Below the pieces are notes generated by a model that saw only the letters and a program-made list of their open reading frames with translations, made no database searches and was not told the DNA's origin. Made by a program: the position numbers and the translations under genes. A stretch of 63,873 bases of DNA, counting the filler, from Caldilineae bacterium (lineage in GTDB: Bacteria > Chloroflexota > Anaerolineae > DTLA01), in assembly GCA_037446815.1 (NCBI GenBank). It is 5 parts of 5 records of this genome, joined end to end, with 100 filler letters (N's around TTAATTAATTAA, not from the genome) between each part and the next. Parts side by side here need not be neighbours in the genome. Positions count along the whole stretch, not along the records: positions 55,575 to 63,873 come from JBBIHX010000132.1; 4 more parts are not named here. The stretch is one strand, 5' to 3'. Positions 2,947 through 60,618 of the stretch are shown one piece after another; within the stretch, counting starts at the first letter, position 1; every line of letters begins with the position of its first letter.

Positions 2947-3972
2947 CTAGGCGTCGTCGCGCCACAAAATGCGGCCATCCACCTCGGCTAGGCTTCCGCA
3001 GCCCGTGAGGATCATGGCAGAGCGCAACTGATCCGCGTACTGGGCCAGGAGCGCGGCGACCGCTTCCTTGCCGCCGCCGACCGCCGCGATGCTCATCGGG
3101 CGCCCCACCATCACGGCGTCCGCGCCCAGCGCCAGCATCTTCAGCACATCGTACCCGGAGCGCACCCCGCCATCCGCGAGAATGGTGATTTGGCCTTTCA
3201 CCCGCGCCGCGATAGACGGGAGCACGTCCGCCGTGCCCGGCGTATGGTCAAGGATGCGCCCGCCGTGGTTGGACACGACGATGGCCGCCGCGCCGGTGTC
3301 CACGGCCATCTCGGCCTCGTCGGGCGTCATGATGCCCTTCAGAATGAACGGCCGTCCCATGCCGGCGATGATCTCCTTCCACGCGGCGGCGGGCTTGGGG
3401 CCGACGTACTGCCCCGCGCGCACCATGCCGATAATCCCCGCCGCGTCTATATCCACGCCCACAGCCCACGCGCCCGCCTCTTCTGCGCGGCGGAGCAGGC
3501 GAACGATGTCCTCTGAGCGTCGCGGCTTGGAGATGAAACACCCGCGGCCCTCATACCGCGCGATGGTGGCAAATCCGACCTCGGCCAGCGCGGGATTCGG
3601 CCCATCGCCGGCCATGCCCAGCGAGCCCGCAGCCACCGCGCCGCCCAGCAGGCCGTCGGCCAACTCGGCTTCGGACACCGCATCGTTCATGTTGAGGGTA
3701 GTCCCCGCCACCGGCGCGACCAGGATGGGCATATCCAGGGCGTGCCCGAACAAGGTGATGCGTATGTCGGGCGTGTCCTTCCCGTGCAGCGTGCGCAGGT
3801 TCAGATGGTACCGACCCAGCGCCGCGACGTTGTTCATGAACGACGAGCCCGACCCAAGGCCCCCCATGCCCGGCATCTCCCCCGCGCATACTCGCCCGTC
3901 GCAGACTGGACACACCCGGCACGCGCCGCGGAACCGCTCCTTCGCCGTTCGCTTGATCTCACTCCAGTCCAC
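2947..3972 (-). CDS. FMN-dependent alpha-hydroxy-acid oxidase/dehydrogenase with N-terminal Cys cluster
   Basis: ILKGI, VSNHGGR, DGGVRSG and GRP motifs; N-terminal CRVCPVCDGRVC; start GTG 3972 or TTG 3990. Confidence 0.88.
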   Translation of the reverse strand: MDWSEIKRTAKERFRGACRVCPVCDGRVCAGEMPGMGGLGSGSSFMNNVAALGRYHLNLRTLHGKDTPDIRITLFGHALDMPILVAPVAGTTLNMNDAVSEAELADGLLGGAVAAGSLGMAGDGPNPALAEVGFATIARYEGRGCFISKPRRSEDIVRLLRRAEEAGAWAVGVDIDAAGIIGMVRAGQYVGPKPAAAWKEIIAGMGRPFILKGIMTPDEAEMAVDTGAAAIVVSNHGGRILDHTPGTADVLPSIAARVKGQITILADGGVRSGYDVLKMLALGADAVMVGRPMSIAAVGGGKEAVAALLAQYADQLRSAMILTGCGSLAEVDGRILWRDDA

Positions 3973-3979
3973 GGCCCAC

Positions 3980-4489
3980 CTACCTGTCAAAATAGATGTT
4001 CTTGCCGGTCGCCGACAGCGGGATACCCATCACGAAGTCGGCGTCTATCAGGCCCATCTCACGGGCGACCACGCCGATGCGATACATGATGCGGTTGTCC
4101 ACGTTCAGAATCTGCGCCGTTTTCACCGCAGACCCCAGGGCGATGCCCATGTCCAGCAGGCGGTAGGCGCATTGAGGGCCTTTGAACTCGCCCTCAAAGG
4201 TATTGATCTTCAAGCACTTCTCAAACCCGCACGCGCCGCAATTCAGGCCGACGGGCGTAGCGTCCTTGATGCCCACGAGCACCACGGCCGCCGAATTCGC
4301 CACGTTCTTGCCGTCGCGGTCAAAGTTGACCTTGCCCGTGCGAACGCCGAACTCCACCATTTTCTCGGCCAGTTCGCGCAGGATGTCGCCCTTGAGCGTG
4401 CGCACGACGACAAAATCCTTGCCCGCCGCCTTGGGGGCCGTGCGCGCAGCGACCTCCATGAGTGCGGTTACGACGTCCATTGCTTCCAT
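3980..4489 (-). CDS. DUF2148 / ferredoxin-like nitroreductase-fold protein
   Basis: AARTAPK, NCGACGFEKC, DMGIALGSA, VDNRIMY and GKNIYFDR are typical of this family. Confidence 0.85.
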   Translation of the reverse strand: MEAMDVVTALMEVAARTAPKAAGKDFVVVRTLKGDILRELAEKMVEFGVRTGKVNFDRDGKNVANSAAVVLVGIKDATPVGLNCGACGFEKCLKINTFEGEFKGPQCAYRLLDMGIALGSAVKTAQILNVDNRIMYRIGVVAREMGLIDADFVMGIPLSATGKNIYFDR

Positions 4490-4519
4490 GTAAGCGTACC
4501 TCCGTAATACGTGTTGATG

Positions 4520-5161
4520 TCATGTCACGGCGTTGGCGTCTGAATCGCCGGGTTTCCCCTGCTCGGCCGACGCCTTGCGATAACGCTTGAGTTCGGCGCT
4601 CGCCCCAATTGCATATATAGACCCCGGCAGCAGGTCAATGACCTCATTGAATTGGTGCACCGCCTCGGCAGACCTACCGCTCCGCATCAGCGCCAGGCCG
4701 AGGTTGTACCGGCAGGCCGCCTCGTGCTTGGGCGACAGGTTGCCCTTGTCCGCGTTCCCGATGAGGCCGGTCAGTATTTGGATCGCCTCTTCCAGCCTGC
4801 CCTCTTTCAGTGAGCACGCGCCGCGGTTGATGCGAGCGGCCCAGCGGCTTGCATCGCCCAGGGCGATGGCCTCGCCCGCGTCGTACAGCCGCCGCGCCAG
4901 CGACCATCGTCCCATGCGTGCCGCCGCATTGCCCAAATCAATCGCCAATTGCGCGCGCATCGTCAGCAGGTACAGCAGCACGATGAAGAGAACGGGATGG
5001 AGCATGAAACCGCTAACCCAGTAGATAACATAGACGAGCGCGGTGAACGCGAGGCTCTCGCCGGCAAAGCGCAGGCTCAAAGGCTCGCGTCGCAGCAGCG
5101 ACAACCCGCCGAACAGCCCCACATACAGCAGTCCCAATAGCAGCGTCAGCCAAAGGCCCAT
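4520..5161 (-). CDS. Membrane protein with three N-terminal TM helices and C-terminal TPRs
   Basis: Hydrophobic N-terminus from MGLWLTLL (GGAGG RBS upstream); TPR-like 'RYNLGLALMRSGRSAEAVHQF'. Confidence 0.75.
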   Translation of the reverse strand: MGLWLTLLLGLLYVGLFGGLSLLRREPLSLRFAGESLAFTALVYVIYWVSGFMLHPVLFIVLLYLLTMRAQLAIDLGNAAARMGRWSLARRLYDAGEAIALGDASRWAARINRGACSLKEGRLEEAIQILTGLIGNADKGNLSPKHEAACRYNLGLALMRSGRSAEAVHQFNEVIDLLPGSIYAIGASAELKRYRKASAEQGKPGDSDANAVT

Positions 5162-5231: not shown

Positions 5232-6209
5232 CTATTTGAACAGGTCGCGAGCGGTGCGCTCCAGCATGGTAACGCCGCGAACCTCGGTCTCGTACAGCGG
5301 CACAATCGCCCGCACGCCATCGCCGAAGGTGCGGTGAATCACGCCCATGTACTCGTCCTGCATAGCGACTCGGTTGCGGACAAACTCCGGCGTCGTATCG
5401 GTAACCGTGCTCTTGTCAATCACCATGTTCACGATGACGCCGCCCACGGGAATCCCGAACTCGGTGAACCAGTTGATGAACCGCGTGATGACCGCGATGG
5501 GGAGCGCTTCGGGCAGCGTTACGAAGAAGAAGGCCGTCTTCTCCGCGTCAGTCAGGAGTTCCTTCGCATGCCCCATCCGATCCTTGAAGCGGAGCAGGTA
5601 CTCCATGAGCGGGTCCTTCTCCTGCTTCTTCTTGCTGTAGGACAGGAGTTCGCGCAGGCTTCGCGCCTCTTCGCGGCTTTGCACCATCTTGTTCACCCAC
5701 AGCGAGTACACCGAGGACATGCCGAGCAAGCGCCGCGCATTGGCCGTGGGCGCCGTGTCAAAGACATACGCCTCGTACTTGTCCTCAAACATGATGTCAA
5801 TCATGTTCTCAAACATCGCCGACTCTTCAAACGCCGGGTTCATCGTGGCCGATTCCACGAACTCATCCGCCTTGGTCTTGATGTCGGCGAACTTGAGGAA
5901 CCACTCTATCTTCTCGCGAATCTCCCGCTTGGACTTCTCTATGGTCTCTCGCGTATCAATCTCGTGGGCCCACAGGTTCGGCACGCCGGTTACGGGCGTT
6001 GGCTTGCCGAAGACATCCTGCCCGAGCAGGCTGGTCAGGCTATGCACCGGGTTGGTGGAGGCCAGAAGCGTACGCTTGCCCTGCTGCGCAAGCCACAAGG
6101 CCGCCGTGCCTGCCATCACCGTCTTCCCGACGCCGCCTTTGCCTCCGAAGAAGACGTACTTCATCTTAGGATGTTCGGCGAGGAATTGCTGCGTTGTCTT
6201 GGTAATCAT
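5232..6209 (-). CDS. ArsA/Get3-family ATPase (switch I Asp->Asn)
   Basis: GKGGVGKT deviant Walker A, STNPVHSL, DTAPT; no Cys residues. Confidence 0.92.
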   Translation of the reverse strand: MITKTTQQFLAEHPKMKYVFFGGKGGVGKTVMAGTAALWLAQQGKRTLLASTNPVHSLTSLLGQDVFGKPTPVTGVPNLWAHEIDTRETIEKSKREIREKIEWFLKFADIKTKADEFVESATMNPAFEESAMFENMIDIMFEDKYEAYVFDTAPTANARRLLGMSSVYSLWVNKMVQSREEARSLRELLSYSKKKQEKDPLMEYLLRFKDRMGHAKELLTDAEKTAFFFVTLPEALPIAVITRFINWFTEFGIPVGGVIVNMVIDKSTVTDTTPEFVRNRVAMQDEYMGVIHRTFGDGVRAIVPLYETEVRGVTMLERTARDLFK

Positions 6210-7189
6210 GCGCCATTACCTCCAAACATCGCATTGGCGACCTTCTCTATCATCGGCAAGCCGGTGATATCCCGCTCAAACTCGGGCACCCACGCCAACA
6301 CTTCGTCGCCGAAGGTGCGATTGATTTTGTCCAGATACTGCCGCTGCATCTCAATGCGGTTGCGGAGATACGCGGGAATGTCCTGCTGGGTCAGTTCGGG
6401 CGGGATCACGCGGTTGACGATGTAGCCTGATAGGGGTACGTTGAACTTCGCGAACAGCCCCGCCGCCTTCTGCGTGTCCAGGATAATCATCTCCTCGGGG
6501 ACCAGCACGAAGAAGAACGCCGTCTTCTGCTTGTCCGTCAGGATGCTGGAAGAAGTGTTGATGCGGTACTTGATGTACTGCAATTCCTTGAGAATCTTGT
6601 CCTCTTCGGTCTCCTTCTCCCGCCGCATCACGGCCGCCACCTTGGAGTACTCTTCCATCTCTTGACGCAGCGCCGTGATCTTGTCAATCCACTCATCATA
6701 CACCGACGCCATGCTCAGGTAGTACAGCGCGTGGCCGAGCGGCACCAGGTCGTAGATGTAGTAGTCGTACTGGCCGCCCACCACGATGTCCACCACCTCA
6801 TCAAAGATGGCGCTTTCCTCCATGGCGGGTTCCGCCGCGGCCGCCTGGATGTAGTTCTCAATCTCCTGCGGCACCGCCGGCAGGCCGTACATGTCCAGAA
6901 TCTTGCGCCGAATCTCCTCCTGGTACTCCTTGATCCGCTTATCCGCATCAATCTCCTGAGCATACAAGTTCGGCATGATCTCCACGGGGCCTTTGCCGAA
7001 GATGTCCCGCTGGAAGATGTCCGAAAGCGAAGCCTGAGGATCCACCGAGAAGACGAGCACGCGGTGCCCCTGCTTCGCCAGCCAATAGGCAGTGGCAGCG
7101 GAGAACGTGGTCTTCCCCAGGCCGCCCTTGCCCCCAAACATGATGTACCGACGATCGGGATACTGTTTGAAAATCTGCGCTAGCGACAA
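6206..7189 (-). CDS. ArsA/Get3-family ATPase (degenerate switch II)
   Basis: GKGGLGKT, SVDPQASL, DLVPLGH; no Cys; stop overlaps the partner's start (ATGA). Confidence 0.92.
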   Translation of the reverse strand: MSLAQIFKQYPDRRYIMFGGKGGLGKTTFSAATAYWLAKQGHRVLVFSVDPQASLSDIFQRDIFGKGPVEIMPNLYAQEIDADKRIKEYQEEIRRKILDMYGLPAVPQEIENYIQAAAAEPAMEESAIFDEVVDIVVGGQYDYYIYDLVPLGHALYYLSMASVYDEWIDKITALRQEMEEYSKVAAVMRREKETEEDKILKELQYIKYRINTSSSILTDKQKTAFFFVLVPEEMIILDTQKAAGLFAKFNVPLSGYIVNRVIPPELTQQDIPAYLRNRIEMQRQYLDKINRTFGDEVLAWVPEFERDITGLPMIEKVANAMFGGNGA

Positions 7190-9272: not shown

Positions 9273-11012
9273 TTAGGCCTTTGTCTTGGCCAGTTCGGCG
9301 CGATACCGCCGGATGGCACCCACTCCGTCCACCACCAGGATAACGGCCAGCACGACCAGGATCAGGGACAGCACTCCAATGGTTACCTGGGCAACGATGC
9401 CCTGCCAGGCCGTTTGCTTGGGCAAGTTGAGGAAGAAGGCCGCATAGGCCGACCAGAGGAGCGCCCCGACGGTGGTAACGAACATGAAGATGAAGGGCCA
9501 GAATGTCCACTGGTAGTTCTTGCCCTTGGACATGAGCCACAGGGTAATCAGCAGCAGAGCCAGGGATGCCATCAACTGGTTGGCAGCACCGAACACGCCC
9601 CAAATCTGGATGAAGGGCATGATCCAGATCAGAAGGAGGGTGAGGACAAGGGCGATGATGGTGCCAACATGGACATTGCGAAGGATGGGGAAGCGATCCC
9701 CCAGTGCCTCAGCGCTGGCCACGCGCATGAAGCGCACCACCAAGTGCATGATGGTCAGCGCCATCAGGGTAAGGAAGATCGCCCCATAGGCGGCACCGAA
9801 CCCCTTGCCCAGCGCGTTGTCCAGCCCCCAATTGTTCAGGAACGCGGAGAGACCCTTAGAGAAGACGGCCGCAGCGCCCCCCGGACCTCCGGCATCCATG
9901 TAGCCCTTGAAGCTGCCGAAGGCCACGGTCGCGGTCAGAAACGCCATGGTGGCGAAGAACATCTCAAAGAACATGGCGCCGCCGCCCACAAAGAGGGCAT
10001 CGCCTTCGCGCTCCAACTGCCGCGCCGTGCCCGACGATGATACCAGGCTATGCCAGCCTGAGATGGCGCCGCAGGCGATGGTCACGAACAGCATCGGCCA
10101 GAGAGGGCCGGACACGGTCCGGAAGGTCGTGGTCGCCGGAAAGTCCCCCATTCCTGGGCGACCAATCAGGATCCCGATGACACCGCCCAGGACGCCCAGG
10201 CTCACGATCCAGAAGGCCACATAGTTGATCGGCTGCGCCCAGCGCCAAATAGGGAGAACGGCGCCCAGGTAGCAGAAGATCACCACCAACAGGCTGCCGA
10301 TGAACCTTGCCAGCGTTACGTCCAGGAACAGTTTCGGGCTGGCCGCGCCGCCGGTAGTCCCGTAGAGGGCGGAGAAGAAGTTCCGCACCGGCTCGGCCAT
10401 GCCCACCCAGATACCCACCAGTGCGAGCACAACGGTGATGACGGTCGTCAGGATGATGTCCTGCTTCCACTTGTAGGTCATCTGGCCGGCCAGCAGGCCC
10501 ACCAGGATCACGATGATCACCCCCAGCGGGACTGCCGGGTTGGTCAGCAGGTTGAACCCCACCTGGATACCAAATGCCCCCATGATCATCAGTAGGTAGA
10601 CGTAGATGAAGGCCAGCAGAATGCCCCGGCCGCGCGGAGAGATGAGCCGATAACTCAACGCCCCGAAGGTCTGGCCTTCCTCACGGACACCCACGATAAT
10701 GCTGCTGTAGTCCTGAACCCAGCCGATGAAGAAGGTCCCGAGCACAATCCACAGCAGCGCGGGGAGCCAGCCCCACTGGACAGCCACAATCGGCCCGAGG
10801 ATGGGCCCCAAAGCGGCGATGGACTTGAACTGGTAGCCAAAGAGGACATTGCGGTTTGCGGGGATGAAGTCTACGCCGTCCATGTACATCTTGGCAGGCG
10901 TGGCCTTCTGGTTGTCTGGCTGGATGATGCGGCGGTCAATGGACTTGGCATAGAGGCCGTACCCAACGGCGATCCCCACAGCGGAAATGAGTAGCACCAA
11001 CAGCGAATTCAT
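9273..11012 (-). CDS. cstA: Carbon starvation protein A (CstA-family peptide/pyruvate transporter)
   Basis: TPA...DGVDF, SIAALGPILGP, FVTIACGAISGWHSL and FGAANQL motifs; many TM helices. Confidence 0.93.
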   Translation of the reverse strand: MNSLLVLLISAVGIAVGYGLYAKSIDRRIIQPDNQKATPAKMYMDGVDFIPANRNVLFGYQFKSIAALGPILGPIVAVQWGWLPALLWIVLGTFFIGWVQDYSSIIVGVREEGQTFGALSYRLISPRGRGILLAFIYVYLLMIMGAFGIQVGFNLLTNPAVPLGVIIVILVGLLAGQMTYKWKQDIILTTVITVVLALVGIWVGMAEPVRNFFSALYGTTGGAASPKLFLDVTLARFIGSLLVVIFCYLGAVLPIWRWAQPINYVAFWIVSLGVLGGVIGILIGRPGMGDFPATTTFRTVSGPLWPMLFVTIACGAISGWHSLVSSSGTARQLEREGDALFVGGGAMFFEMFFATMAFLTATVAFGSFKGYMDAGGPGGAAAVFSKGLSAFLNNWGLDNALGKGFGAAYGAIFLTLMALTIMHLVVRFMRVASAEALGDRFPILRNVHVGTIIALVLTLLLIWIMPFIQIWGVFGAANQLMASLALLLITLWLMSKGKNYQWTFWPFIFMFVTTVGALLWSAYAAFFLNLPKQTAWQGIVAQVTIGVLSLILVVLAVILVVDGVGAIRRYRAELAKTKA

Positions 11013-11876: not shown

Positions 11877-12581
11877 ATGGGCATCAAGATTCTCCTCATT
11901 GATGACGAGCCGATGATGAAGCGAATGCTGGCGGATGTCTTCTGCCCGCCCGACTATGAGTTCGCCGCCGCCGCGGACGGGCGCGAAGGGCTCCGCATGG
12001 TCTACGATTTCAGGCCCGACGTGGTCCTCCTGGACATCATGATGCCCGGAATGAGCGGCTGGGAAGTCTGCCAGCGCATTCGGGAGTTCTCCACCGTCCC
12101 CATCGTCATGCTTACCGCCATGGGGCAGACTACCGACAAGGTGCGCGGCCTGGACCTGGGAGCCGACGACTACATCACCAAGCCCGTTGACCTTGAGGAA
12201 ATCAAGGCGCGAGTCCAGGCGCTCTTGCGCCGCGTGGCGCTCGGACAACAGGCAACATGCCTCTACTCGGCGGGCGGCGACTATCTGACCATAGACCCCA
12301 TCGCGCGGCGTGTCCGCGTCGCAGGTGAGGACATCGCACTGACTCCCACCGAGTACAACCTCCTCCTGTACTTCATCACCCACCCCGACCGCGCCATCTC
12401 ATACGGCGAACTTCTGGACAACGTCTGGGGTCCCGGCTACGAAGCCGCCGTCAGCAATCTGAAACTCTACATCCTCTATCTGCGACGCAAGATAGAACCT
12501 GACCCGGACAATCCTATCTACATCCTCAACGAGCGCGGCGTAGGTTATCGCTTCGTCCGCTCACCTCTGCCGGAGAAGTGA
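11877..12581 (+). CDS. OmpR/PhoB-family response regulator
   Basis: LLIDDE, LLDIMMP, GADDYITKP receiver domain; winged-helix LTPTEY...RRKIE...ERGVGYRF. Confidence 0.93.
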   Translation: MGIKILLIDDEPMMKRMLADVFCPPDYEFAAAADGREGLRMVYDFRPDVVLLDIMMPGMSGWEVCQRIREFSTVPIVMLTAMGQTTDKVRGLDLGADDYITKPVDLEEIKARVQALLRRVALGQQATCLYSAGGDYLTIDPIARRVRVAGEDIALTPTEYNLLLYFITHPDRAISYGELLDNVWGPGYEAAVSNLKLYILYLRRKIEPDPDNPIYILNERGVGYRFVRSPLPEK

Positions 12582-20589: not shown

Positions 20590-20603
20590 CGCACAACGCG
20601 TTT

Positions 20604-20657
20604 CTTACGCACTCCTAATCTGCCTCTAACACCCCGTTAATCTCATGCCGCTATACT
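20604..20657 (+). promoter_or_regulatory. Four 11-bp-period direct repeats plus -10 box upstream of htrA
   Basis: CTTAC-N6-CTAAT-N6-CTAAC-N6-TTAAT-N10-TATACT. Confidence 0.7.
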
Positions 20658-20684: not shown

Positions 20685-21917
20685 ATGATTCGGAAAACAA
20701 GACCCATACTGCCTGGAATCCTTATTGTGCTGCTTGTAGTTCTTCTCGCGGGCTGTTCCGGCGTGCCGTTCGCGGCGGGCCAGGCATCGCCCACCGCCCA
20801 GCCAACGGCGACGCCGGCATCCACGGCGACGCCCCTCGCCATCGCAACCGCGCCGACGACATGGGCGCTGCCGCAGGCCGACTACGAAGAGCAGTTGCTC
20901 GTGCGCGTATATGAGGAGGCAAGCCCATCCGTCGTGAACATCCGCGTCCGCACCAGGGTCAGCAGCGGCTTCCCGGGCTTCGGCGATTTCGTCCAGCAAG
21001 GACAGGGGTCCGGCTTCGTCTGGGATGCCCAGGGGCACATCGTAACCAACAACCACGTGGTGGAGAACGCAACGGAGATTGAAGTAACGTTCAACGATGG
21101 CATCTCCCTGCCGGCGACGTTGGTGGGCGCCGACCCCGACAGCGACCTGGCCGTCATCAAGGTAGACCCGGCCGAGCACGACCTGAAGCCGGTCAAACTC
21201 GGCGACTCAGACAGCCTCAAGGTCGGCCAGCGCGCCATCGCCATCGGGAACCCGTTCGGCCTTGCAGGAACCCTCACGGCCGGCGTCATCAGCGCGCTGG
21301 GCCGCGATCTTCCGGCCGGGTCCTCCGATACCGGCACAGTGCGTTACCGAATCCCCGACGTGATCCAAACCGACGCGCCCATCAACCCGGGCAACTCGGG
21401 CGGGCCGCTCCTGAACAGCAACGCCGAGGTCATCGGCGTCAACGCGGCCATTGAATCGTCCACGGGCACGTCGGCGGGCATCGGCTTCGCCATTCCGGTG
21501 AACATCGTCAAACGGGTGGTGCCGTCCCTCATCCAGACTGGCGCCTACCGACACCCCTGGCTCGGCGTTACGGTGGCGACCCTCTCGCCCAAGGTCGCCG
21601 AGGCCATGGGCCTGTCGCGCAAACAGCAGGGCGCGCTGGTCGTGGAGGTAGCCACGGGCAGCCCTGCGGCGCTCGCCGGGGTCAGGCCCAGCAACCGAGT
21701 CGTCCAGATTGACGACACCCAAGTTACCGTCGGCGGCGACGTGATTATCCGCATAGACGATACAGCCATCACGCGCTCCGAGGACCTCATCAGTTACCTG
21801 GTGCGCCGCACGTCCGTGGGCCAGCAGGTTACCCTGCGGGTGCTCCGCGACGGCAAGGAGATGGACATCAAGGTAACCCTGGGAGAGCGTCCCACGACGA
21901 GGGACAGAAACACCTAG
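20685..21917 (+). CDS. htrA: HtrA/DegP-like serine protease with PDZ domain (lipoprotein)
   Basis: LAGC lipobox; TNNHV, DLAVIK and GNSGGPL catalytic triad; C-terminal PDZ; AGGAGG RBS. Confidence 0.93.
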   Translation: MIRKTRPILPGILIVLLVVLLAGCSGVPFAAGQASPTAQPTATPASTATPLAIATAPTTWALPQADYEEQLLVRVYEEASPSVVNIRVRTRVSSGFPGFGDFVQQGQGSGFVWDAQGHIVTNNHVVENATEIEVTFNDGISLPATLVGADPDSDLAVIKVDPAEHDLKPVKLGDSDSLKVGQRAIAIGNPFGLAGTLTAGVISALGRDLPAGSSDTGTVRYRIPDVIQTDAPINPGNSGGPLLNSNAEVIGVNAAIESSTGTSAGIGFAIPVNIVKRVVPSLIQTGAYRHPWLGVTVATLSPKVAEAMGLSRKQQGALVVEVATGSPAALAGVRPSNRVVQIDDTQVTVGGDVIIRIDDTAITRSEDLISYLVRRTSVGQQVTLRVLRDGKEMDIKVTLGERPTTRDRNT

Positions 21918-22476
21918 CGCCCGCCGGCCCAACTGCGGCCAATGGCGGCGCAAGAAACGCCCCACCTCCGGCGGCGAGGTTGACGGGAGCAGGCCGCCCA
22001 AGACTGCTGCTCCCGCGCCGACGACTCGCAGGCGTAACACTCCGCCGGTTAGGGCTGTCATTCTGACTGAGCGGCGGAGAGCGAAGGGTCTTGCCCCTCA
22101 CCCGCGCAATCTGTGCTATCCGTGGTTACCGCCCCGCCAGATGGATTCACTTTGCTCGCATGCCCGCGCGGGGCTAAACCCCCGCGCTACGGCTGCCCCA
22201 GCCCGCAGGACTTCGCGCGTTTGGCCTGAGGCTTCAGCCTCGGGCGGGCTTGCCCGTTCGCGTCCATTCGCACTTTCCACCCGTTGTCTTCCGAAGCGGC
22301 GGAGAGCGAAGAGCCTCGCCCCTCACCCCGGCCCTCTCCCGAAGGGCGAGGGTGTGTCCCCCACACGCCAGACCCCGTGTCAGCCCCACCCTGCAGTTGA
22401 CGCCTGCCGCGTTTGGTGCTATCCTTCGTCAGGGCATGCACGTTGCGCCCGCGAAACGCTCTTGCGGAGCCTGGCT

Positions 22477-23355
22477 GTGAGCAACGACTGGCATACGTGG
22501 ACGGCGCTTGCCTGCGACATCGGGCGAAAACGCAGGAACAACGAGGACTACGCCCTGGCCTGCGAACCCGAGGCCCCCTCCCTGCGCAGCGACAAGGGCC
22601 ACCTATACATCGTGGCCGACGGCATCGGGGGAGGCGCGGGGGGCGAAATCGCCAGCCGCTTCGCCGCCCTTGCCGTCGCCTATCACTATTACAACCTCCC
22701 CGCCGCCCCATTCCGAAGCCTGTACGCCGCCGTCGCGCGCGCCAATGATGACCTGTACCGGTACGCCCATACGCACGGCCGCTTCGCCACCATGGGAACG
22801 ACCATCGTCTGCGCGGCGGTGCGAGACGCCTGGCTCTACATTGCCCACGTCGGAGACAGCCGAGCCTATCTCCTGCGGGACGGCGATCTGCGCCCGCTAA
22901 CCGAGGACCATAACCTGGCCGCGCAACTGGCGCGCGAAGGGCTTATCACCAGGCGGCAGGCCAATCAGCACCCGCAGCGCAACCTCCTGCTGCGCTCGCT
23001 GGGCGGCGAAAGCAGCGTCCTGCCCGATTTCACCGAAACGCGCCTCCTGCCCGGCGACGCCGTCGTCTTGTGCTCCGACGGCCTCACCCGCCACGTGGAC
23101 GAGGCCGAGATCGGCGCCATCTGCTCCTCGGCCCCCGAGCCCCAGGAGGCCGTCCAAGCGCTGGTTGACCTGGCAAATGAGCGCGGCGGGATGGACAACA
23201 TCTCGGTCATCCTAGCGCGCTGGGATCGGGGGCCGAGGCCAATGCCGCGCGCGCCCGACATTCTGGATGCGCCGCCCCCGCAGGAACCGACGGTGGACGG
23301 CATCATCGCAGCCTTCGCAGCATCATCGCCCGGCTCATCGCCGGAATCCTCGTAA
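22477..23355 (+). CDS. PP2C-family Ser/Thr phosphatase (Stp1/PrpC-like)
   Basis: RRNNED, VADGIGG, HVGDSRAY, CSDGL and GGMDNIS motifs. Confidence 0.92.
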   Translation: MSNDWHTWTALACDIGRKRRNNEDYALACEPEAPSLRSDKGHLYIVADGIGGGAGGEIASRFAALAVAYHYYNLPAAPFRSLYAAVARANDDLYRYAHTHGRFATMGTTIVCAAVRDAWLYIAHVGDSRAYLLRDGDLRPLTEDHNLAAQLAREGLITRRQANQHPQRNLLLRSLGGESSVLPDFTETRLLPGDAVVLCSDGLTRHVDEAEIGAICSSAPEPQEAVQALVDLANERGGMDNISVILARWDRGPRPMPRAPDILDAPPPQEPTVDGIIAAFAASSPGSSPESS

Positions 23356-23380
23356 CAGGGAGAGCGTCCAAACAGAGCGC

Positions 23381-24976
23381 ATGGAAGATTTGATAGGTCA
23401 GACGCTACTAGACCGATACTACGTTGAGGAATTCGTCGGCCGAGGAGGCATGGCAGAGGTGTACCGCGCGCGCGACCTGCGCCGCCGCATCACCGTCGCC
23501 CTGAAATTCCTCCGCGAGGACATGGCCGAAGATGAGGTGTTCCTGCGGCGCTTCCGCCGCGAAGCGCGGGTCTTGGAGACCCTGCAACACCCCAACATCG
23601 TGCGCTACTACGGGTTTGAGGAGACCGACTACCTGCACTTCCTGGTCGTGGAGTTCATTGACGGCGAAGGCTTGCGGAAGAAACTCTCCCGCCTGGCCCG
23701 CCCGCTCACGTTGGCCCAGGCGCTATCCATCCTGGAGCCGGTGTGCAACGCCCTGCACTACGCCCACGCCGAGGGCATCTTCCACTGCGACATCAAGCCC
23801 GCCAACATCATGATTGACCGCGCCGGCCGGGTTGTCGTCGCCGACTTCGGTATCGCGAAACTGGCCGAGAGCGCCACCGTTACGTCCAGCACCACGGGCA
23901 CGCCCGCGTACATGGCCCCCGAACAGTGCCGCGGACAGAAAGTAGACGCGCGCACCGATATCTACGCGCTGGCCATCACCACGTTTGAGATGTTGACCCT
24001 GGACCGGCCCTTCACCGGCGACATGGCAACCATCCAGGGCGCGGTCTCCGAGCGCATCCGATGGGAGCAACTCAAGGCCACGCCGCCATCGCCGCGCAAG
24101 TACAACCCGGAGATTCCCCCATTCGCCGAGCAGGCTATCCTGAAGGCCCTTGAGAAGCCGCGCAACCGCCGCTTCCCAAGCGTCCTGGCGTTCTACGATG
24201 CCTTGAGCAACGGCGGGAAGGTCATCCCCGACCCCGTGCTGCCCTGGACGGAAGAGGGCGAGGCGGAACCCCCGCTTCCCACCCTGGTGGAGCCATCCAC
24301 ACCGGAAGGGGCCACGCGGCACGGCCTCTGGGAGCAGCGGCTCACCGACATGTTGTGGGCGGCGCGCCGAGCGTGGCGACGGGCGGCGGATGCATGCGCC
24401 AGCGCCGTGCAGCGCGGGCCGCGCGCGCTCGCCGCCGGGCTTGCTCGTTGGCTCGCCGACATCCGGGGGCGGGCAACCCGCTTCTGGGCACAGTCCCGCG
24501 CCAGGCGGCCGGCGCTGCCCTACCTTCTGGGTGCCGTCGTCGTCCTGGCCATCGCCGCCACCGCATGGGCGATTGCCGGCGGGGCCAGACCCACCGCGCC
24601 CGTCCCCACCCCGACGGCCTCGGCAACGCGCCCACCGTTGGCGGCAACGCCCTCGCCCACGCCGGGCCTCACCCCGTCGCCAACACCGGCGAGCGAGAAC
24701 GCCATTTACCTAACCATTGAAACGGCCAAAGCAAATATCCGCAGCGGCCCCGCAACCGTATACCCCATCATCGCCGTCGCGGAGAGCGGCCAGCGATTTG
24801 AAGTCGTCGCGCGCTCCCCGAAGAGCGACTGGTTCCAAATCTGCTGCGTCCAGGGCAAGACCGGCTGGGTGCACGTGGAGCGCGTCAAGGTCTGGGGCAG
24901 CCTGGACCTCGTCCCCATGACCACGCCCAAGCCTCCGGCGCCCCAGCAAATCCAGACCGGAACCGGAGGGCGATAG
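23381..24976 (+). CDS. Membrane Ser/Thr kinase with extracellular SH3b-like domain
   Basis: GRGGMAEVY, VALK, HCDIKPAN, DFG and APE motifs; TM helix; PT-rich linker; ANIRSGP...GWV. Confidence 0.9.
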   Translation: MEDLIGQTLLDRYYVEEFVGRGGMAEVYRARDLRRRITVALKFLREDMAEDEVFLRRFRREARVLETLQHPNIVRYYGFEETDYLHFLVVEFIDGEGLRKKLSRLARPLTLAQALSILEPVCNALHYAHAEGIFHCDIKPANIMIDRAGRVVVADFGIAKLAESATVTSSTTGTPAYMAPEQCRGQKVDARTDIYALAITTFEMLTLDRPFTGDMATIQGAVSERIRWEQLKATPPSPRKYNPEIPPFAEQAILKALEKPRNRRFPSVLAFYDALSNGGKVIPDPVLPWTEEGEAEPPLPTLVEPSTPEGATRHGLWEQRLTDMLWAARRAWRRAADACASAVQRGPRALAAGLARWLADIRGRATRFWAQSRARRPALPYLLGAVVVLAIAATAWAIAGGARPTAPVPTPTASATRPPLAATPSPTPGLTPSPTPASENAIYLTIETAKANIRSGPATVYPIIAVAESGQRFEVVARSPKSDWFQICCVQGKTGWVHVERVKVWGSLDLVPMTTPKPPAPQQIQTGTGGR

Positions 24977-25016
24977 CGCCGGCGAGGCCGTACAGCACTA
25001 TGCAAGGAGACGAACC

Positions 25017-25946
25017 ATGCCACGGCTAGAGGGAACAATCGTCAACGACCGGTACCACGTGTCCGCGTTCCTGGGACGGGGCGGGATGGCCGAAGTGTAC
25101 AGGGCGCATGACCGCGAAACCGGCCGCGAGGTGGCGCTCAAGTTCCTGCGCGACGACCTGGCCGAAGACCGGGTCTTCCTCCGCCGATTCCGCCGCGAGG
25201 CCCAGGTACTGGAACAGTTGCGCCATCCCAGCATCATGGCGTATTATGGGTTTGAGGAAAGCGGCGATATGGCCTTCATCGTGGTGGAATATGTGGACGG
25301 CGAAACGCTGCGGCGCAAACTCCGCCGCCTCAAATCGCCCCTGACCGTCGGCCAGGCCCTGAGCATCCTGAAGCCGGTCTGCGAGGCGCTGGAATATGCC
25401 CACTCGCTGGACATCTATCACTGCGACATCAAACCGGCCAACATCATGATCCAGGGCGACGGCCGCGTGGTGCTGACCGATTTCGGCATCGCGCGCATGA
25501 CCGGCGTGGCCACAGCGACCAGTCTGACGCCAGGAACGCCGGCCTACATGGCCCCAGAGCAATGCCGCGGCCAGAACGTGAGCGCCCAGACCGACATCTA
25601 CTCGCTGGCCATTACCCTCTTTGAGATGATCACCCTGGAGCGCCCGTTCAAGGGCGACACCGCCACCATCCGCGGCTCGGCCAACGAGCGCATCCGCTGG
25701 GAGCAGATGCGCAAGCCCGCGCCGTCGCCGCGCATGTTCAACCCGGACATCCCGCTGACCGTCGCCCGCCAGATTCGCGTGGCGCTGTCCAAGAAGCCCT
25801 CGGCGCGCCACCCGTCCGCCATGCAATTCTTCCAGAGCCTTCTCGTGCCGGGTGTGGTTACCATTGACACCGCATGGCACTGGGAAGCGCTGGAGAGCGC
25901 ACCGGGAGGCGACCGACCCGACGAGCCGGAAACCCCCTCCACCTAG
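25017..25946 (+). CDS. Soluble Ser/Thr kinase, paralog of the upstream kinase
   Basis: Same motifs including HCDIKPAN; kinase domain only. Confidence 0.9.
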   Translation: MPRLEGTIVNDRYHVSAFLGRGGMAEVYRAHDRETGREVALKFLRDDLAEDRVFLRRFRREAQVLEQLRHPSIMAYYGFEESGDMAFIVVEYVDGETLRRKLRRLKSPLTVGQALSILKPVCEALEYAHSLDIYHCDIKPANIMIQGDGRVVLTDFGIARMTGVATATSLTPGTPAYMAPEQCRGQNVSAQTDIYSLAITLFEMITLERPFKGDTATIRGSANERIRWEQMRKPAPSPRMFNPDIPLTVARQIRVALSKKPSARHPSAMQFFQSLLVPGVVTIDTAWHWEALESAPGGDRPDEPETPST

Positions 25947-55574: not shown

Positions 55575-55824
55575 GCGAAGCATCTCGGTCGGCGAGATTC
55601 TTCGCGGCTTCGCCGCTCAGAATGACAGTTTTCGCAACCGCGAATAACGCGAATCTACGCGAATAGGGGAGCGGTATCCACAGATACCACGGATAGCGCG
55701 GATGGGCGTGGGATTCTTCGCGGCTTCGCCGCTCAGAAAGACAGCCCTGCGGTGTCATGATGAGCCGAAGGCGAAGCATCTCGGTCGGCGAGATTCTTCG
55801 CGGCTTCGCCGCTCAGAATGACAG
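55575..55824. repeat. REP cluster
   Basis: Three copies of gattcttcgcggcttcgccgctcagaa(t/a)gaca. Confidence 0.8.
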
Positions 55825-55840
55825 ATGAGGCGGGAGGCCT

Positions 55841-55894
55841 CTTATAGAACGTTTACCCTGCTCTTATGCAATTCTCATGCAGGGCACGTATACT
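55841..55894 (+). promoter_or_regulatory. Four 11-bp-period direct repeats plus -10 box upstream of dnaK
   Basis: CTTAT-N6-TTTAC-N6-CTTAT-N6-CTCAT-N10-TATACT. Confidence 0.7.
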
Positions 55895-55959: not shown

Positions 55960-57870
<1,911 letters not shown>

Positions 57871-57986: not shown

Positions 57987-58526
57987 GTGCAGATACCGGT
58001 GAAAGTGATTCCACCCGAGGACGATAAGGAGCGGACGGCTCAGACCGAAGGGGCAGCCCCCGCGCAAGAGCCTGCGCCCGCGACGCCGCAACCCGCGCCC
58101 ACGCAGCCAGATGTGGACTGGCGCGATATGGCGTTGCGGCTCCAGGCGGAGATGGAGAACTTCCGCAAGCGGCAGCAGCGCCTGGCCCAGGAGCAGATCG
58201 CTTCAGAGCGGGAGCGGCTGCTGCGCGGCGTGTTGCCGGTGGCCGATAACCTGGAACGGGCGCTGGCCCACGCCGACGCGCAGGATGGCCTTCGCGAGGG
58301 CGTGGCGCTGACCCGCGACGTTTTGATGCAGTGGCTGCGGCAGCAGGGCGTGGAGCCTGTGAATCCGCTCGGCAAGCCGTTTGACCCGACCTGGCACGAG
58401 GCGGTGGGGACGGTTCCTAGCGCGCACCACGGCGTGGAGCCGCAGACGGTGGTGGCGGTCAGCGAGATGGGGTACAGGCTGAATGACCGCGTGCTTCGCC
58501 CTGCCAAGGTGATCGTGGCGGTCTAG
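57987..58526 (+). CDS. grpE: Nucleotide exchange factor GrpE
   Basis: RLQAEMENFRKR, LPVADNLERAL, FDP..HEAV and GY..RVLRPAKV motifs. Confidence 0.93.
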   Translation: MQIPVKVIPPEDDKERTAQTEGAAPAQEPAPATPQPAPTQPDVDWRDMALRLQAEMENFRKRQQRLAQEQIASERERLLRGVLPVADNLERALAHADAQDGLREGVALTRDVLMQWLRQQGVEPVNPLGKPFDPTWHEAVGTVPSAHHGVEPQTVVAVSEMGYRLNDRVLRPAKVIVAV

Positions 58527-58578: not shown

Positions 58579-59532
58579 ATGGAATACAAGGATTACTACA
58601 AGATACTCGGCGTTGGGAAAAACGCCACCGAAAAGGAAATCAAACAGGCATTCCGTCGGCTGGCGCGCCAGTATCACCCGGACATGAATCCGAACAACCC
58701 GCAGGCCGAAGCGAAGTTCAAGGAGATCAACGAGGCCTACGAGGTGCTGTCGGACCCGGAGAAGCGCAAGAAGTACGATCAGTTGGGCGCGGACTGGGTG
58801 CGGTGGCAGCAGGCTGGCGGGCAGCCGGGGGATTTTGACTGGAGCCGCTGGACCACGTGGGGGACGGGGCAGGGGCCCAACGTTCGGTACGCCACCGCCG
58901 ATGACCTGCGAGACCTGTTCGGGGATTCCAGCCCGTTCTCCGACTTCTTCAGCCAGATTTTCGGCGGGATGGGCACCGGACGCGCCCGCACGGAGGGGTT
59001 CGGGTTCCGCACGCGTCCCCAGCGAGGTCAGGACTACGAGCAGGATGTGGAGATTACGCTGGAAGAGGCGTTCCACGGCACGACTCGGACGCTCCAGCGC
59101 GACGGCGAGCGCCTGGATGTGAAGATTCCGCGCGGCGCGGATACGGGCACGCGGGTGCGCCTGGCGGGCAAGGGGGCGCCCGGCATCGCCGGCGGGCCGG
59201 CGGGCGACATCTACCTGCGGGTGAAGGTTCTGCCGCATCCGCGCTTTGAGCGCAAGGGGGATGACCTGTACACCACGGTGCCGGTGGACTTGTACACGGC
59301 GGTGCTGGGCGGCGAGGTGCGCGTGCCCACGCTGGAAGGCGATGTGCTGCTGACAATACCGGCGGCAACGCAGAATGGGCGCGTGTTCCGCCTGCGCGGC
59401 AAAGGGATGCCTCGGCTGCGCAAGCCGGACGAGCGCGGCGACCTGCTGGCGAAGGTGGAGGTGCAGTTGCCCACGCGCCTGACCGCGGAGCAGCGCCGCC
59501 TGTTTGAGGAACTTCGGCGCATCTCCCGCTAG
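58579..59532 (+). CDS. Class B J-domain protein (DnaJ/CbpA-like, no Zn finger)
   Basis: DYYKILG, HPD, G/F region and C-terminal DnaJ_C; no CxxCxGxG repeats. Confidence 0.93.
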   Translation: MEYKDYYKILGVGKNATEKEIKQAFRRLARQYHPDMNPNNPQAEAKFKEINEAYEVLSDPEKRKKYDQLGADWVRWQQAGGQPGDFDWSRWTTWGTGQGPNVRYATADDLRDLFGDSSPFSDFFSQIFGGMGTGRARTEGFGFRTRPQRGQDYEQDVEITLEEAFHGTTRTLQRDGERLDVKIPRGADTGTRVRLAGKGAPGIAGGPAGDIYLRVKVLPHPRFERKGDDLYTTVPVDLYTAVLGGEVRVPTLEGDVLLTIPAATQNGRVFRLRGKGMPRLRKPDERGDLLAKVEVQLPTRLTAEQRRLFEELRRISR

Positions 59533-59545
59533 GCGCGCGCAAACT

Positions 59546-59610
59546 CTTACCTTTCTCTAATCTTTGTTTTACCTTCATTTTATGCGCATCGGGTATATAG
59601 GCGGTAGAAT
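59546..59610 (+). promoter_or_regulatory. Four 11-bp-period direct repeats plus -10 candidates upstream of the hsp20 pair
   Basis: CTTAC-N6-CTAAT-N6-TTTAC-N6-TTTAT-N10-TATATA; TAGAAT lies 11 nt further on. Confidence 0.65.
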
Positions 59611-59637: not shown

Positions 59638-60087
59638 ATGGCAGACCTGGTTCGTTGGGATCCGTTCCGCGAGATGGTGAGCCTGCGTGAGGCGATGGAC
59701 CGGCTGTTTGAGGAGAGTTTCGTCCGTCCCTTCGGCCCGCTCTTCCGCGCCGAGGGCATGGGCACTCTCGCCATTGACATGTACGAGACCGATAACGATG
59801 TGGTGGTCAAGGCGTCGGTGCCCGGCGTGAAGGCCAAGGATTTGGATATCACCGTTACGGGCAACACCCTGACGATCAAGGGTGAGGTCAAGGAAGAGGC
59901 CGAGGAGAAGAAGGGCGGCTATCATTACCGCGAGCGCCGGTACGGGGCCTTCCAGCGGTCGGTTACCCTGCCGGTGGACGTGGAGGCCGATAAGGCCGAG
60001 GCCACCTTTGAGGACGGCGTGCTGACCCTCAGACTGCCGAAGGTGGAAGAGGCGAAGCCGAAGCAGATCACCATCAAGGCGAAGTAA
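59638..60087 (+). CDS. Small heat shock protein Hsp20
   Basis: WDPF, RERRYGAFQRS, ATFEDGVL and IxI tail. Confidence 0.95.
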   Translation: MADLVRWDPFREMVSLREAMDRLFEESFVRPFGPLFRAEGMGTLAIDMYETDNDVVVKASVPGVKAKDLDITVTGNTLTIKGEVKEEAEEKKGGYHYRERRYGAFQRSVTLPVDVEADKAEATFEDGVLTLRLPKVEEAKPKQITIKAK

Positions 60088-60171: not shown

Positions 60172-60618
60172 ATGGCACGGCAAGTTTCTGTTTGGGAACC
60201 GTTCCGGGATTTCGTAACCCTTCGCGATGCGATGGATCGGCTGTTTGAGCAGAGTTTCGTTCGGCCCGCGGCGGAGTTCGCCGGCGACCGGGTGTATCGG
60301 CTTCCCGTGGACGCCTACAGCACCGAGGACGCGGTGTACGTGGAGGCGGCGCTGCCCGGCGTCAATCGGGATAGCGTGGACATCTCGCTGGACGGCGAGA
60401 CCCTGACCATTCGCGCCGAGGTTCCGGCTCCCAAGGACGAGGGGCGCGACTACGCCATCCGCGAGCGGTTCTATGGCACGCTCCAGCGGTCGCTGACGCT
60501 GAATGTGCCGGTGGACGCGGCGAAGGCCGAGGCTACGTTTGAGAACGGCGTGCTGACCCTGCGCATCCCGAAAGCGGAGGCGGCCAAGCCGAGGAAGATT
60601 TCCGTCAAAACCAAATAG
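60172..60618 (+). CDS. Small heat shock protein Hsp20
   Basis: WEPF, RERFYG, ATFENGVL and IxV tail. Confidence 0.95.
   Translation: MARQVSVWEPFRDFVTLRDAMDRLFEQSFVRPAAEFAGDRVYRLPVDAYSTEDAVYVEAALPGVNRDSVDISLDGETLTIRAEVPAPKDEGRDYAIRERFYGTLQRSLTLNVPVDAAKAEATFENGVLTLRIPKAEAAKPRKISVKTK

Follow-up and report, generated by a model that had tools for sequence, protein, structure and literature searches.

A conserved four-fold direct repeat upstream of chaperone and protease genes in Chloroflexota, with a KdpE-branch response regulator as candidate activator

What switches on a dnaK operon whose promoter carries neither a clear -35 box nor the consensus site of a familiar heat-shock repressor? Known heat-shock control relies mainly on repressors or alternative sigma factors. 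The operon in question belongs to a member of the Chloroflexota, a large phylum from digesters, sediments and hot springs, most of whose members are uncultured; a search of titles and abstracts found no work on heat-shock regulators, on the motif or on the regulator described below in this phylum, and a prior prediction could lie in RegPrecise or in supplements. The window analysed here, 63,873 nt long, joins five contigs of a 3.19-Mb genome with 65% GC; htrA lies on contig C67, and dnaK with an hsp20 pair on contig C132.

The initial annotation of this window proposed that dnaK, the hsp20 pair and htrA share a promoter in which four pentamers, spaced 11 bp apart, are followed after 10 nt by a -10-like hexamer. 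Each of the twelve pentamers lies exactly where it was placed, on two contigs, and so do the 10-nt gaps and the three hexamers (Table 1). The unit is better described as a hexamer that begins one base earlier (TCTTAT, GTTTAC, TCTTAT and TCTCAT at dnaK), and the hexamer at hsp20, TATATA, lacks the final T of a sigma-70 -10 box. The three promoters are also free of CIRCE, as had been claimed, and we found no HAIR or CtsR consensus there.

Table 1. Features of the window (positions along the whole stretch)
Feature	Position	Strand	Basis or remark
Four hexamers, period 11, 5' of second dnaK operon; predicted site for two regulator dimers, ~-61 to -23	55840..55878	+	Near-identical in 4/4 congeners
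Sigma-70-type -10 TATACT (dnaK)	55889..55894	+	Predicted start ~55901 (A), inferred from CiaR spacing
dnaK paralogue under repeat	55960..57870	+	72% identical to other dnaK (hrcA operon, contig C110)
grpE	57987..58526	+	Pfam GrpE
dnaJ-family co-chaperone, J domain + DnaJ_C	58579..59532	+	Pfam
Four hexamers, period 11, 5' of hsp20 pair	59545..59583	+	Kept in 4/4 congeners
Candidate -10 TATATA (hsp20), last base atypical	59594..59599	+	Sequence
Alternative -10 TAGAAT (hsp20)	59605..59610	+	11 nt further on than TATATA
hsp20, first of pair	59638..60087	+	Pfam HSP20
hsp20, second of pair	60172..60618	+	Pfam HSP20
Four hexamers, period 11, 5' of htrA	20603..20641	+	Kept before htrA in G001, G004
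Sigma-70-type -10 TATACT (htrA)	20652..20657	+	TATAAT at equivalent place in G001, G004
htrA-family protease: hydrophobic N-terminus, trypsin + PDZ domains	20685..21917	+	Pfam, sequence
Repeat elements at contig C132 start	55575..55825	.	First 37 nt overlap contig C127 end
Sister OmpR-family regulator, helix KLYILYLR; rival binder, not favoured	11877..12581	+	Sequence

The repeat is real and not a product of chance. Four units at period 11 occur six times in the genome, far above the 0.0012 occurrences expected from unit frequency; control periods from 7 to 16 (other than 11) gave 0-2 matches each, and ten local shuffles gave one four-unit match in total. The full pattern of the initial annotation has three matches in the 3.19-Mb genome, all inside the window. 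It is almost certain that the repeats form a shared regulatory element.

A fourth full site with equal geometry was found 5' of clpB-lon on contig C127, so that all four full sites of the genome lie 5' of proteostasis genes. The remaining two of the six period-11 matches differ in unit (TTCAC) and in gap (22 nt) and stand before genes for secreted proteins. A matrix built on them scores its own sites at 44.8-49.6, and the next independent matches reach 26.3 (an ABC transporter) and 26.1. We could not find a site upstream of the other dnaK, lon, clp, hsp20 and htrA paralogues in the genome. The gene of a membrane PDZ protein is preceded by a two-unit site and TATACT; the idea that this was a four-unit site cut by a repeat element was ruled out, as 4/4 congeners likewise show only two clear units.

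The genome has two exact copies of CIRCE, one 5' of groES and the other 5' of hrcA-grpE-dnaK; exact HAIR does not occur, and its loose matches do not lie at chaperones. The chaperones therefore appear to be divided between HrcA and the repeat element. Of the extra members predicted by the initial annotation, clpB and lon were thus recovered, while groES turned out to be under CIRCE. Its idea of a CIRCE-independent regulon applies to the repeat promoters themselves, but HrcA is complemented rather than replaced, with groESL and the other dnaK operon keeping CIRCE.

The sites are conserved upstream of orthologous genes. Those before dnaK and hsp20 are kept in all four congeners, and in 16 of 29 relatives the best dnaK match has a repeat no more than 500 nt away. 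Among the remaining 13, ten have hrcA-grpE-dnaK operons and one has a repeat before an hsp20 gene in front of dnaK. Across the class, a strict pattern matched 129/301 genomes, with 2 matches for the reversed-pattern control; this is an undercount, since G043 has two good sites and zero strict matches. Outside the class, a tighter pattern was found in 10/131 genomes; of its 11 matches, all but two stand before hsp20 or groES.

Scanning the fetched loci for the units only, with no -10 term, yielded 318 sites, of which 82 stand 5' of a chaperone or protease gene. These 82 have exactly four conserved units, most commonly TCTAAC and TCTAAT, giving the consensus TCTAAY x4. TANNNT stands at offset 10 in 63/82; as some loci had been fetched by a pattern that fixes TA, the last T of the -10 (75/82) is the only wholly free test. 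The resulting profile, T-A-x-x-x-T, is of the housekeeping type. The absence of a clear TTGACA, noted at the outset for the window, extends to these loci: in the 68 chaperone-linked sites with TA in place, the -35 never exceeds 4/6. Targets recurring across families are hsp20, dnaK, groESL, dnaJ, grpE, lon, clp, a site-2-type protease and a similar ABC transporter, in target regions that were hand-picked from the match list and with genes named partly by sequence reading. The repeat promoter also stands before an alternative sigma-70-family gene, named by sequence reading, in L548 (G013 C108:22591) and L055.

For htrA the picture is less uniform. The best htrA match in 30 other genomes has a site close upstream in two and ~1.1 kb upstream in three; in 7/30 htrA lies 3' of a co-directional dnaJ, clpB or lon. 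The proposal that one activator jointly drives cytoplasmic chaperones and the envelope protease thus fits this genus, where htrA appears to be a direct target, but is borne out only patchily elsewhere.

Which protein might bind the repeats? Comparing the thirteen short OmpR-type proteins of the genome with five motif-bearing genomes, we found that a single one, encoded at G000:C127:2333-3046, has an orthologue in all five. It consists of receiver and winged-helix domains (Pfam) and belongs to the KdpE branch of the OmpR/PhoB family. Orthologues occur in 95/121 class and 57/131 phylum genomes, in single copy in all but one, and form one clade with support 1.0; among the matches listed they include named records of Anaerolineae, Thermoflexus, Roseiflexus, Ktedonobacteria and Dehalococcoidia. 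The protein reaches no NCBIfam family cut-off, and its nearest solved structure is E. coli KdpE (PDB 4KNY). The helix Arg equivalent to KdpE R193 is kept in 95/97 orthologues, and among the regulators of this genome the KdpE R-x-Y pair is found in the C127 protein only.

The distribution of this regulator was compared with that of the repeat at hsp20, in 30 regulator-positive and 30 regulator-negative genomes chosen before their promoters were viewed, of which 28 and 27 gave an hsp20 locus. One locus, the best match, was scored per genome, and a repeat was called at a score of at least 17, a value reached by 4/318 control windows. The repeat lies 5' of hsp20 in 14/28 regulator-positive vs 2/27 regulator-negative genomes, a comparison in which p-values overstate significance because related genomes are not independent. 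A perfect TTGACA-N16-18-TANNNT promoter shows the reverse distribution (2/28 vs 14/27), and none of the 16 repeat-bearing hsp20 upstream regions has both. The association is seen within the class (11/15 vs 2/15); outside it, the counts of 3/13 vs 0/12 (p 0.22) are not significant. Half of the regulator-positive genomes (14/28) have no repeat before their best hsp20 match. At the same threshold of 17, a site was found before 2/22 clpB and 2/30 groES loci; as these genes are often operon-internal or CIRCE-controlled, their upstream regions make a weak test. Lineages that have exchanged repeat-type and TTGACA-type promoters provide a natural data set on regulon rewiring.

Gene neighbourhoods point in the same direction. 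A chaperone gene lies within -1.5/+2.2 kb of 13/92 regulator loci (7/55 families), vs 0/85 loci of other regulators; five more regulator loci have a chaperone gene further out, and 74/92 show no chaperone neighbour within the DNA fetched. The layouts vary: regulator-repeat-dnaK, regulator-repeat-hsp20, kinase-regulator-repeat-groESL, and a kinase-regulator pair divergent from repeat-hsp20 or repeat-dnaK; lon is also found as a neighbour. In G320 the repeat stands directly 5' of regulator-kinase-hsp20-hsp20, while in the present genome the regulator's own operon has no repeat upstream. The start of contig C132 and the end of contig C127 overlap by 37 nt, no other contig end fits, and the kinase is divergent from dnaK in G001 and G002; the two contigs therefore probably adjoin, which would place the kinase-regulator pair between clpB-lon and the dnaK operon. 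The stacked repeat elements at the C132 start stop ~15 nt 5' of the first dnaK-promoter unit, and other sequence takes their place in G001 and G002.

The adjacent kinase gene (C127:181-2340) encodes a GAF-GAF-PAS-HisKA-HATPase protein, with one GAF domain in most orthologues. An atlas search with the first GAF domain returned generic GAF clusters and nothing else. We could not find a strongly hydrophobic segment or a conserved cysteine in the kinase. It is predicted to be soluble, and its signal is probably cytoplasmic rather than derived from the envelope. The regulator is often the last gene of an operon with a PP2C phosphatase, a J-domain-vWA fusion and a zinc-ribbon FHA protein (L202, L204, L217, L225, L230, L235), sometimes with a small GTPase gene after it. 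Where the regulator lies in such an operon, a kinase orthologue was found elsewhere in 4/4 genomes tested.

Taken together, a conserved promoter element with a candidate regulator is well supported by these genome comparisons. We consider it rather likely that the four repeats are bound by the KdpE-branch regulator of contig C127, which, paired with the soluble GAF-PAS kinase, would serve as a chaperone activation switch. As to its parts, control is very likely to be activation, the GAF-PAS kinase is with good probability the cognate partner, the C127 clade is likely to be what binds the repeats, and for the trigger we lean towards heat or unfolded protein. In the mechanism that we propose, a cytoplasmic stress signal would lead the kinase to phosphorylate the regulator, and two head-to-tail dimers would fill the four half-sites on one face of the helix, the proximal pair covering the -35 region and recruiting housekeeping RNA polymerase. 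In this genome dnaK-grpE-dnaJ, the hsp20 pair, clpB-lon, htrA and probably the PDZ protein would be switched on in this way, while HrcA would repress groESL and the other dnaK operon.

These promoters show the features of OmpR/PhoB-activated promoters: direct hexamers with a period of ~11 bp, a proximal repeat over the -35 region, a fixed gap to the -10 and a regulator linked to the targets. An activator of this family common to the promoters, as suggested by the initial annotation, is thus supported by the clpB-lon site, by conservation, by the missing -35 and by a regulator that fits; the likeness to MprA or CiaR that it had in mind gives way to a KdpE-type candidate. KdpE itself binds TTTATA-N5-TTTACA and needs helix residue R193, according to PMC3264566. 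The C127 protein has the same helix Arg and Tyr, the half-sites share the period of 11, and TTTATA/TTTACA fall in register with units 3 and 4 of the hsp20 promoter. The differences are that KdpE has two half-sites and potassium-pump targets, here replaced by four half-sites and chaperone targets, and that KdpD is a membrane kinase, unlike the GAF-GAF-PAS kinase with its lack of a strongly hydrophobic segment. A true KdpE was rejected (199.7 bits vs a cut-off of 325; a kinase without KdpD domains), as was a potassium regulator, since kdpA went undetected in 4/5 regulator-positive genomes tested; in the present genome, which is 94% complete, it was not found.

In its working the system most resembles Hik2/Hik34-Rre1 of cyanobacteria, a two-component activation of cytoplasmic chaperones (PMC6789579; Kobayashi 2017 and Hasegawa 2024, as cited in PMC13421787 and PMC13232611). 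The Rre1 regulon is described as including groES, groEL, dnaK2 and a group 2 sigma factor (PMC13421787, PMC13232611), and one site in G013 suggests a sigma factor target here likewise. Hik2 is reported to sense via a GAF domain, with DnaK feeding back on it by titration (PMC13421787). Rre1, however, is of the LuxR/NarL type with the site GTNCGGK, as against an OmpR/KdpE-type protein and the four-fold direct repeat TCTAAY x4, and the kinase here lacks conserved cysteines that could hold an iron-sulfur cluster. In Mycobacterium tuberculosis, MprA has the HtrA protease gene pepD, the small heat-shock protein gene acr2 and sigma factors as targets (PMC3544749); the likeness lies in an OmpR-family activator common to an HtrA protease and a small heat-shock protein. 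The same source draws MprB as a cell-envelope sensor and places dnaK and clpB under HspR (PMC3544749). CiaRH of Streptococcus pneumoniae resembles the present system in its hexamer-N5-hexamer-N22-start geometry and its htrA target, but CiaR has two repeats with the unit TTTAAG, and dnaK, clpB and hsp20 are not among its targets in the part of that account available (PMC6560143). HrcA/CIRCE and HspR/HAIR have similar target genes, and hrcA and an hspR-like gene are both present in this genome; they act by repression at inverted repeats, and neither consensus occurs at the four promoters.

If the proposal is true, it adds a second, independent two-component activation of dnaK, clpB, hsp20 and groESL, a design that would have arisen more than once. 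For chaperone induction in Chloroflexota there is now a named motif, with candidates for the regulator and the kinase and a list of targets, so that the question can be put to a direct test with purified protein and a 39-bp probe. A further-reaching idea, which we hold only tentatively, is that a large part of the phylum inherited the pair as its ancestral, positively acting heat-shock switch. The kinase would sense how much unfolded protein is present, perhaps through titration of DnaK, the operon of phosphatase, J-domain-vWA and FHA genes would supply a second input, and chaperones would be activated via the four-half-site box; the switch would be a convergent counterpart of Hik2-Rre1, swapped by lineage against HrcA and plain promoters.

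The best surviving alternative, although an unlikely one, is that the box is common to KdpE-like paralogues serving a broader envelope or stress regulon, a sister regulator (that of the window, or the one on contig C152) being the main binder in some lineages. Repeats do stand before sister regulators in G031, G074 and G011, and L079 has the helix HYLKLYIRYLR. Targets are mostly non-chaperone in family f25, where 1/16 examined sites precedes a chaperone and the rest precede secreted, polysaccharide and regulator genes, two of them sister regulators, one with a near-identical helix; the same is true of 4/4 sites in G106. The repeat-bearing genomes G037, G035 and G020 yielded no orthologue of the C127 regulator, in assemblies of 170-940 contigs and 88-97% completeness; the G018 orthologue was similarly missed at a contig edge. 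In G037 the kinase is missing as well, and an RLYI helix occurs in two paralogues. Against a shared box, all four full sites here precede proteostasis genes, the C127 regulator alone has orthologues in all five screened genomes, C152 orthologues are present in motif-negative G007 and G097, and none of the 85 other-regulator loci adjoins a chaperone. In some lineages, nevertheless, more than one regulator may use the box, and the regulon may extend beyond proteostasis.

It is quite improbable that the repeats are bound by something other than the KdpE branch: the regulator of contig C38, which we take to be MprA-like, the HspR-like MerR protein of contig C80, a SARP-type activator or an alternative sigma factor. 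All these candidate types are present in the genome, which also has two long Trans_reg_C proteins. The MprA hexamer presumably resembles the repeat unit, a likeness for which our literature search found no confirming paper. The C38 regulator, our first choice by resemblance, was rejected: no orthologue was found in motif-bearing G011, G014, G016 and G018 (it was found in 1/5 screened), and it had a chaperone neighbour in 0/30 loci. The control of pepD and acr2 by MprA (PMC3544749) fits this alternative. The HspR-like protein was set aside with its gene present in motif-negative G097, G056, G036 and G078, and the housekeeping T-A-x-x-x-T profile of the -10 speaks against an alternative sigma factor. 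In regulator-negative genomes, hspR-like genes were seen in dnaJ-hspR-clpB operons divergent from hsp20.

Returning to the C127 regulator, one may ask whether it could act as a repressor freed under stress, with the -10 serving as an extended or weak promoter. The related RpaB is reported to repress where its repeat overlaps -38 to +23 (PMC13421787), and the proximal unit here reaches ~-23. We regard this as very improbable: there is no -35 to mask, regulator-negative genomes restore TTGACA, and the spacing equals that of CiaR-activated promoters, TTTAAG-N5-TTTAAG-N22-start (PMC6560143). That the repeats are chance, or AT-rich bent promoter DNA without a specific binder, has a negligible probability, for although the units are AT-rich and in helical phase, the period, shuffle and reversed-pattern controls, the conservation despite divergent spacers and the fixed count of four all argue against it.

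Several further observations were made in this genome. A similar ABC-2 transporter carries the repeat in three families (C85:6037- in G000, L547 and L561) and is a possible conserved non-chaperone member. Repeats of the TTCAC type, with four to five units and TACAAT placed 22 nt past the last clear unit, lie 5' of secreted-protein genes at C12:16941+ and C84:9231+, the C12 site directly behind an OmpR-type regulator gene; in other families, similar CTTCAC repeats stand before genes for copper-oxidase-like and secreted proteins. A second motif family (G000 C5:4035+, C33:925+, C105:7789- and C219:1245-) consists of ATGAAC-N4-TGTCAT, then TGTCAT/TTTCAT units at period 11, 10 nt and TATAAT/TATACT; its TGTCAT unit resembles a PhoB half-site, and 2/4 of its sites precede radical-SAM-like or sugar-transferase genes. 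At G000 C80:2910-8102 a single run of genes that lacks the repeat comprises a second htrA, the HspR-like MerR gene and a clpC-like gene, and lexA with a second LexA-like gene (C110:4695-5339, 3947-4612) is divergent from hrcA. Within the window, a PP2C-type phosphatase and two Ser/Thr kinase genes lie directly 3' of htrA (22141-25946), and two tandem ArsA/GET3-like ATPase genes (5232-7189, 9273-11012) lie near a CstA-like transporter gene, as named by sequence reading.
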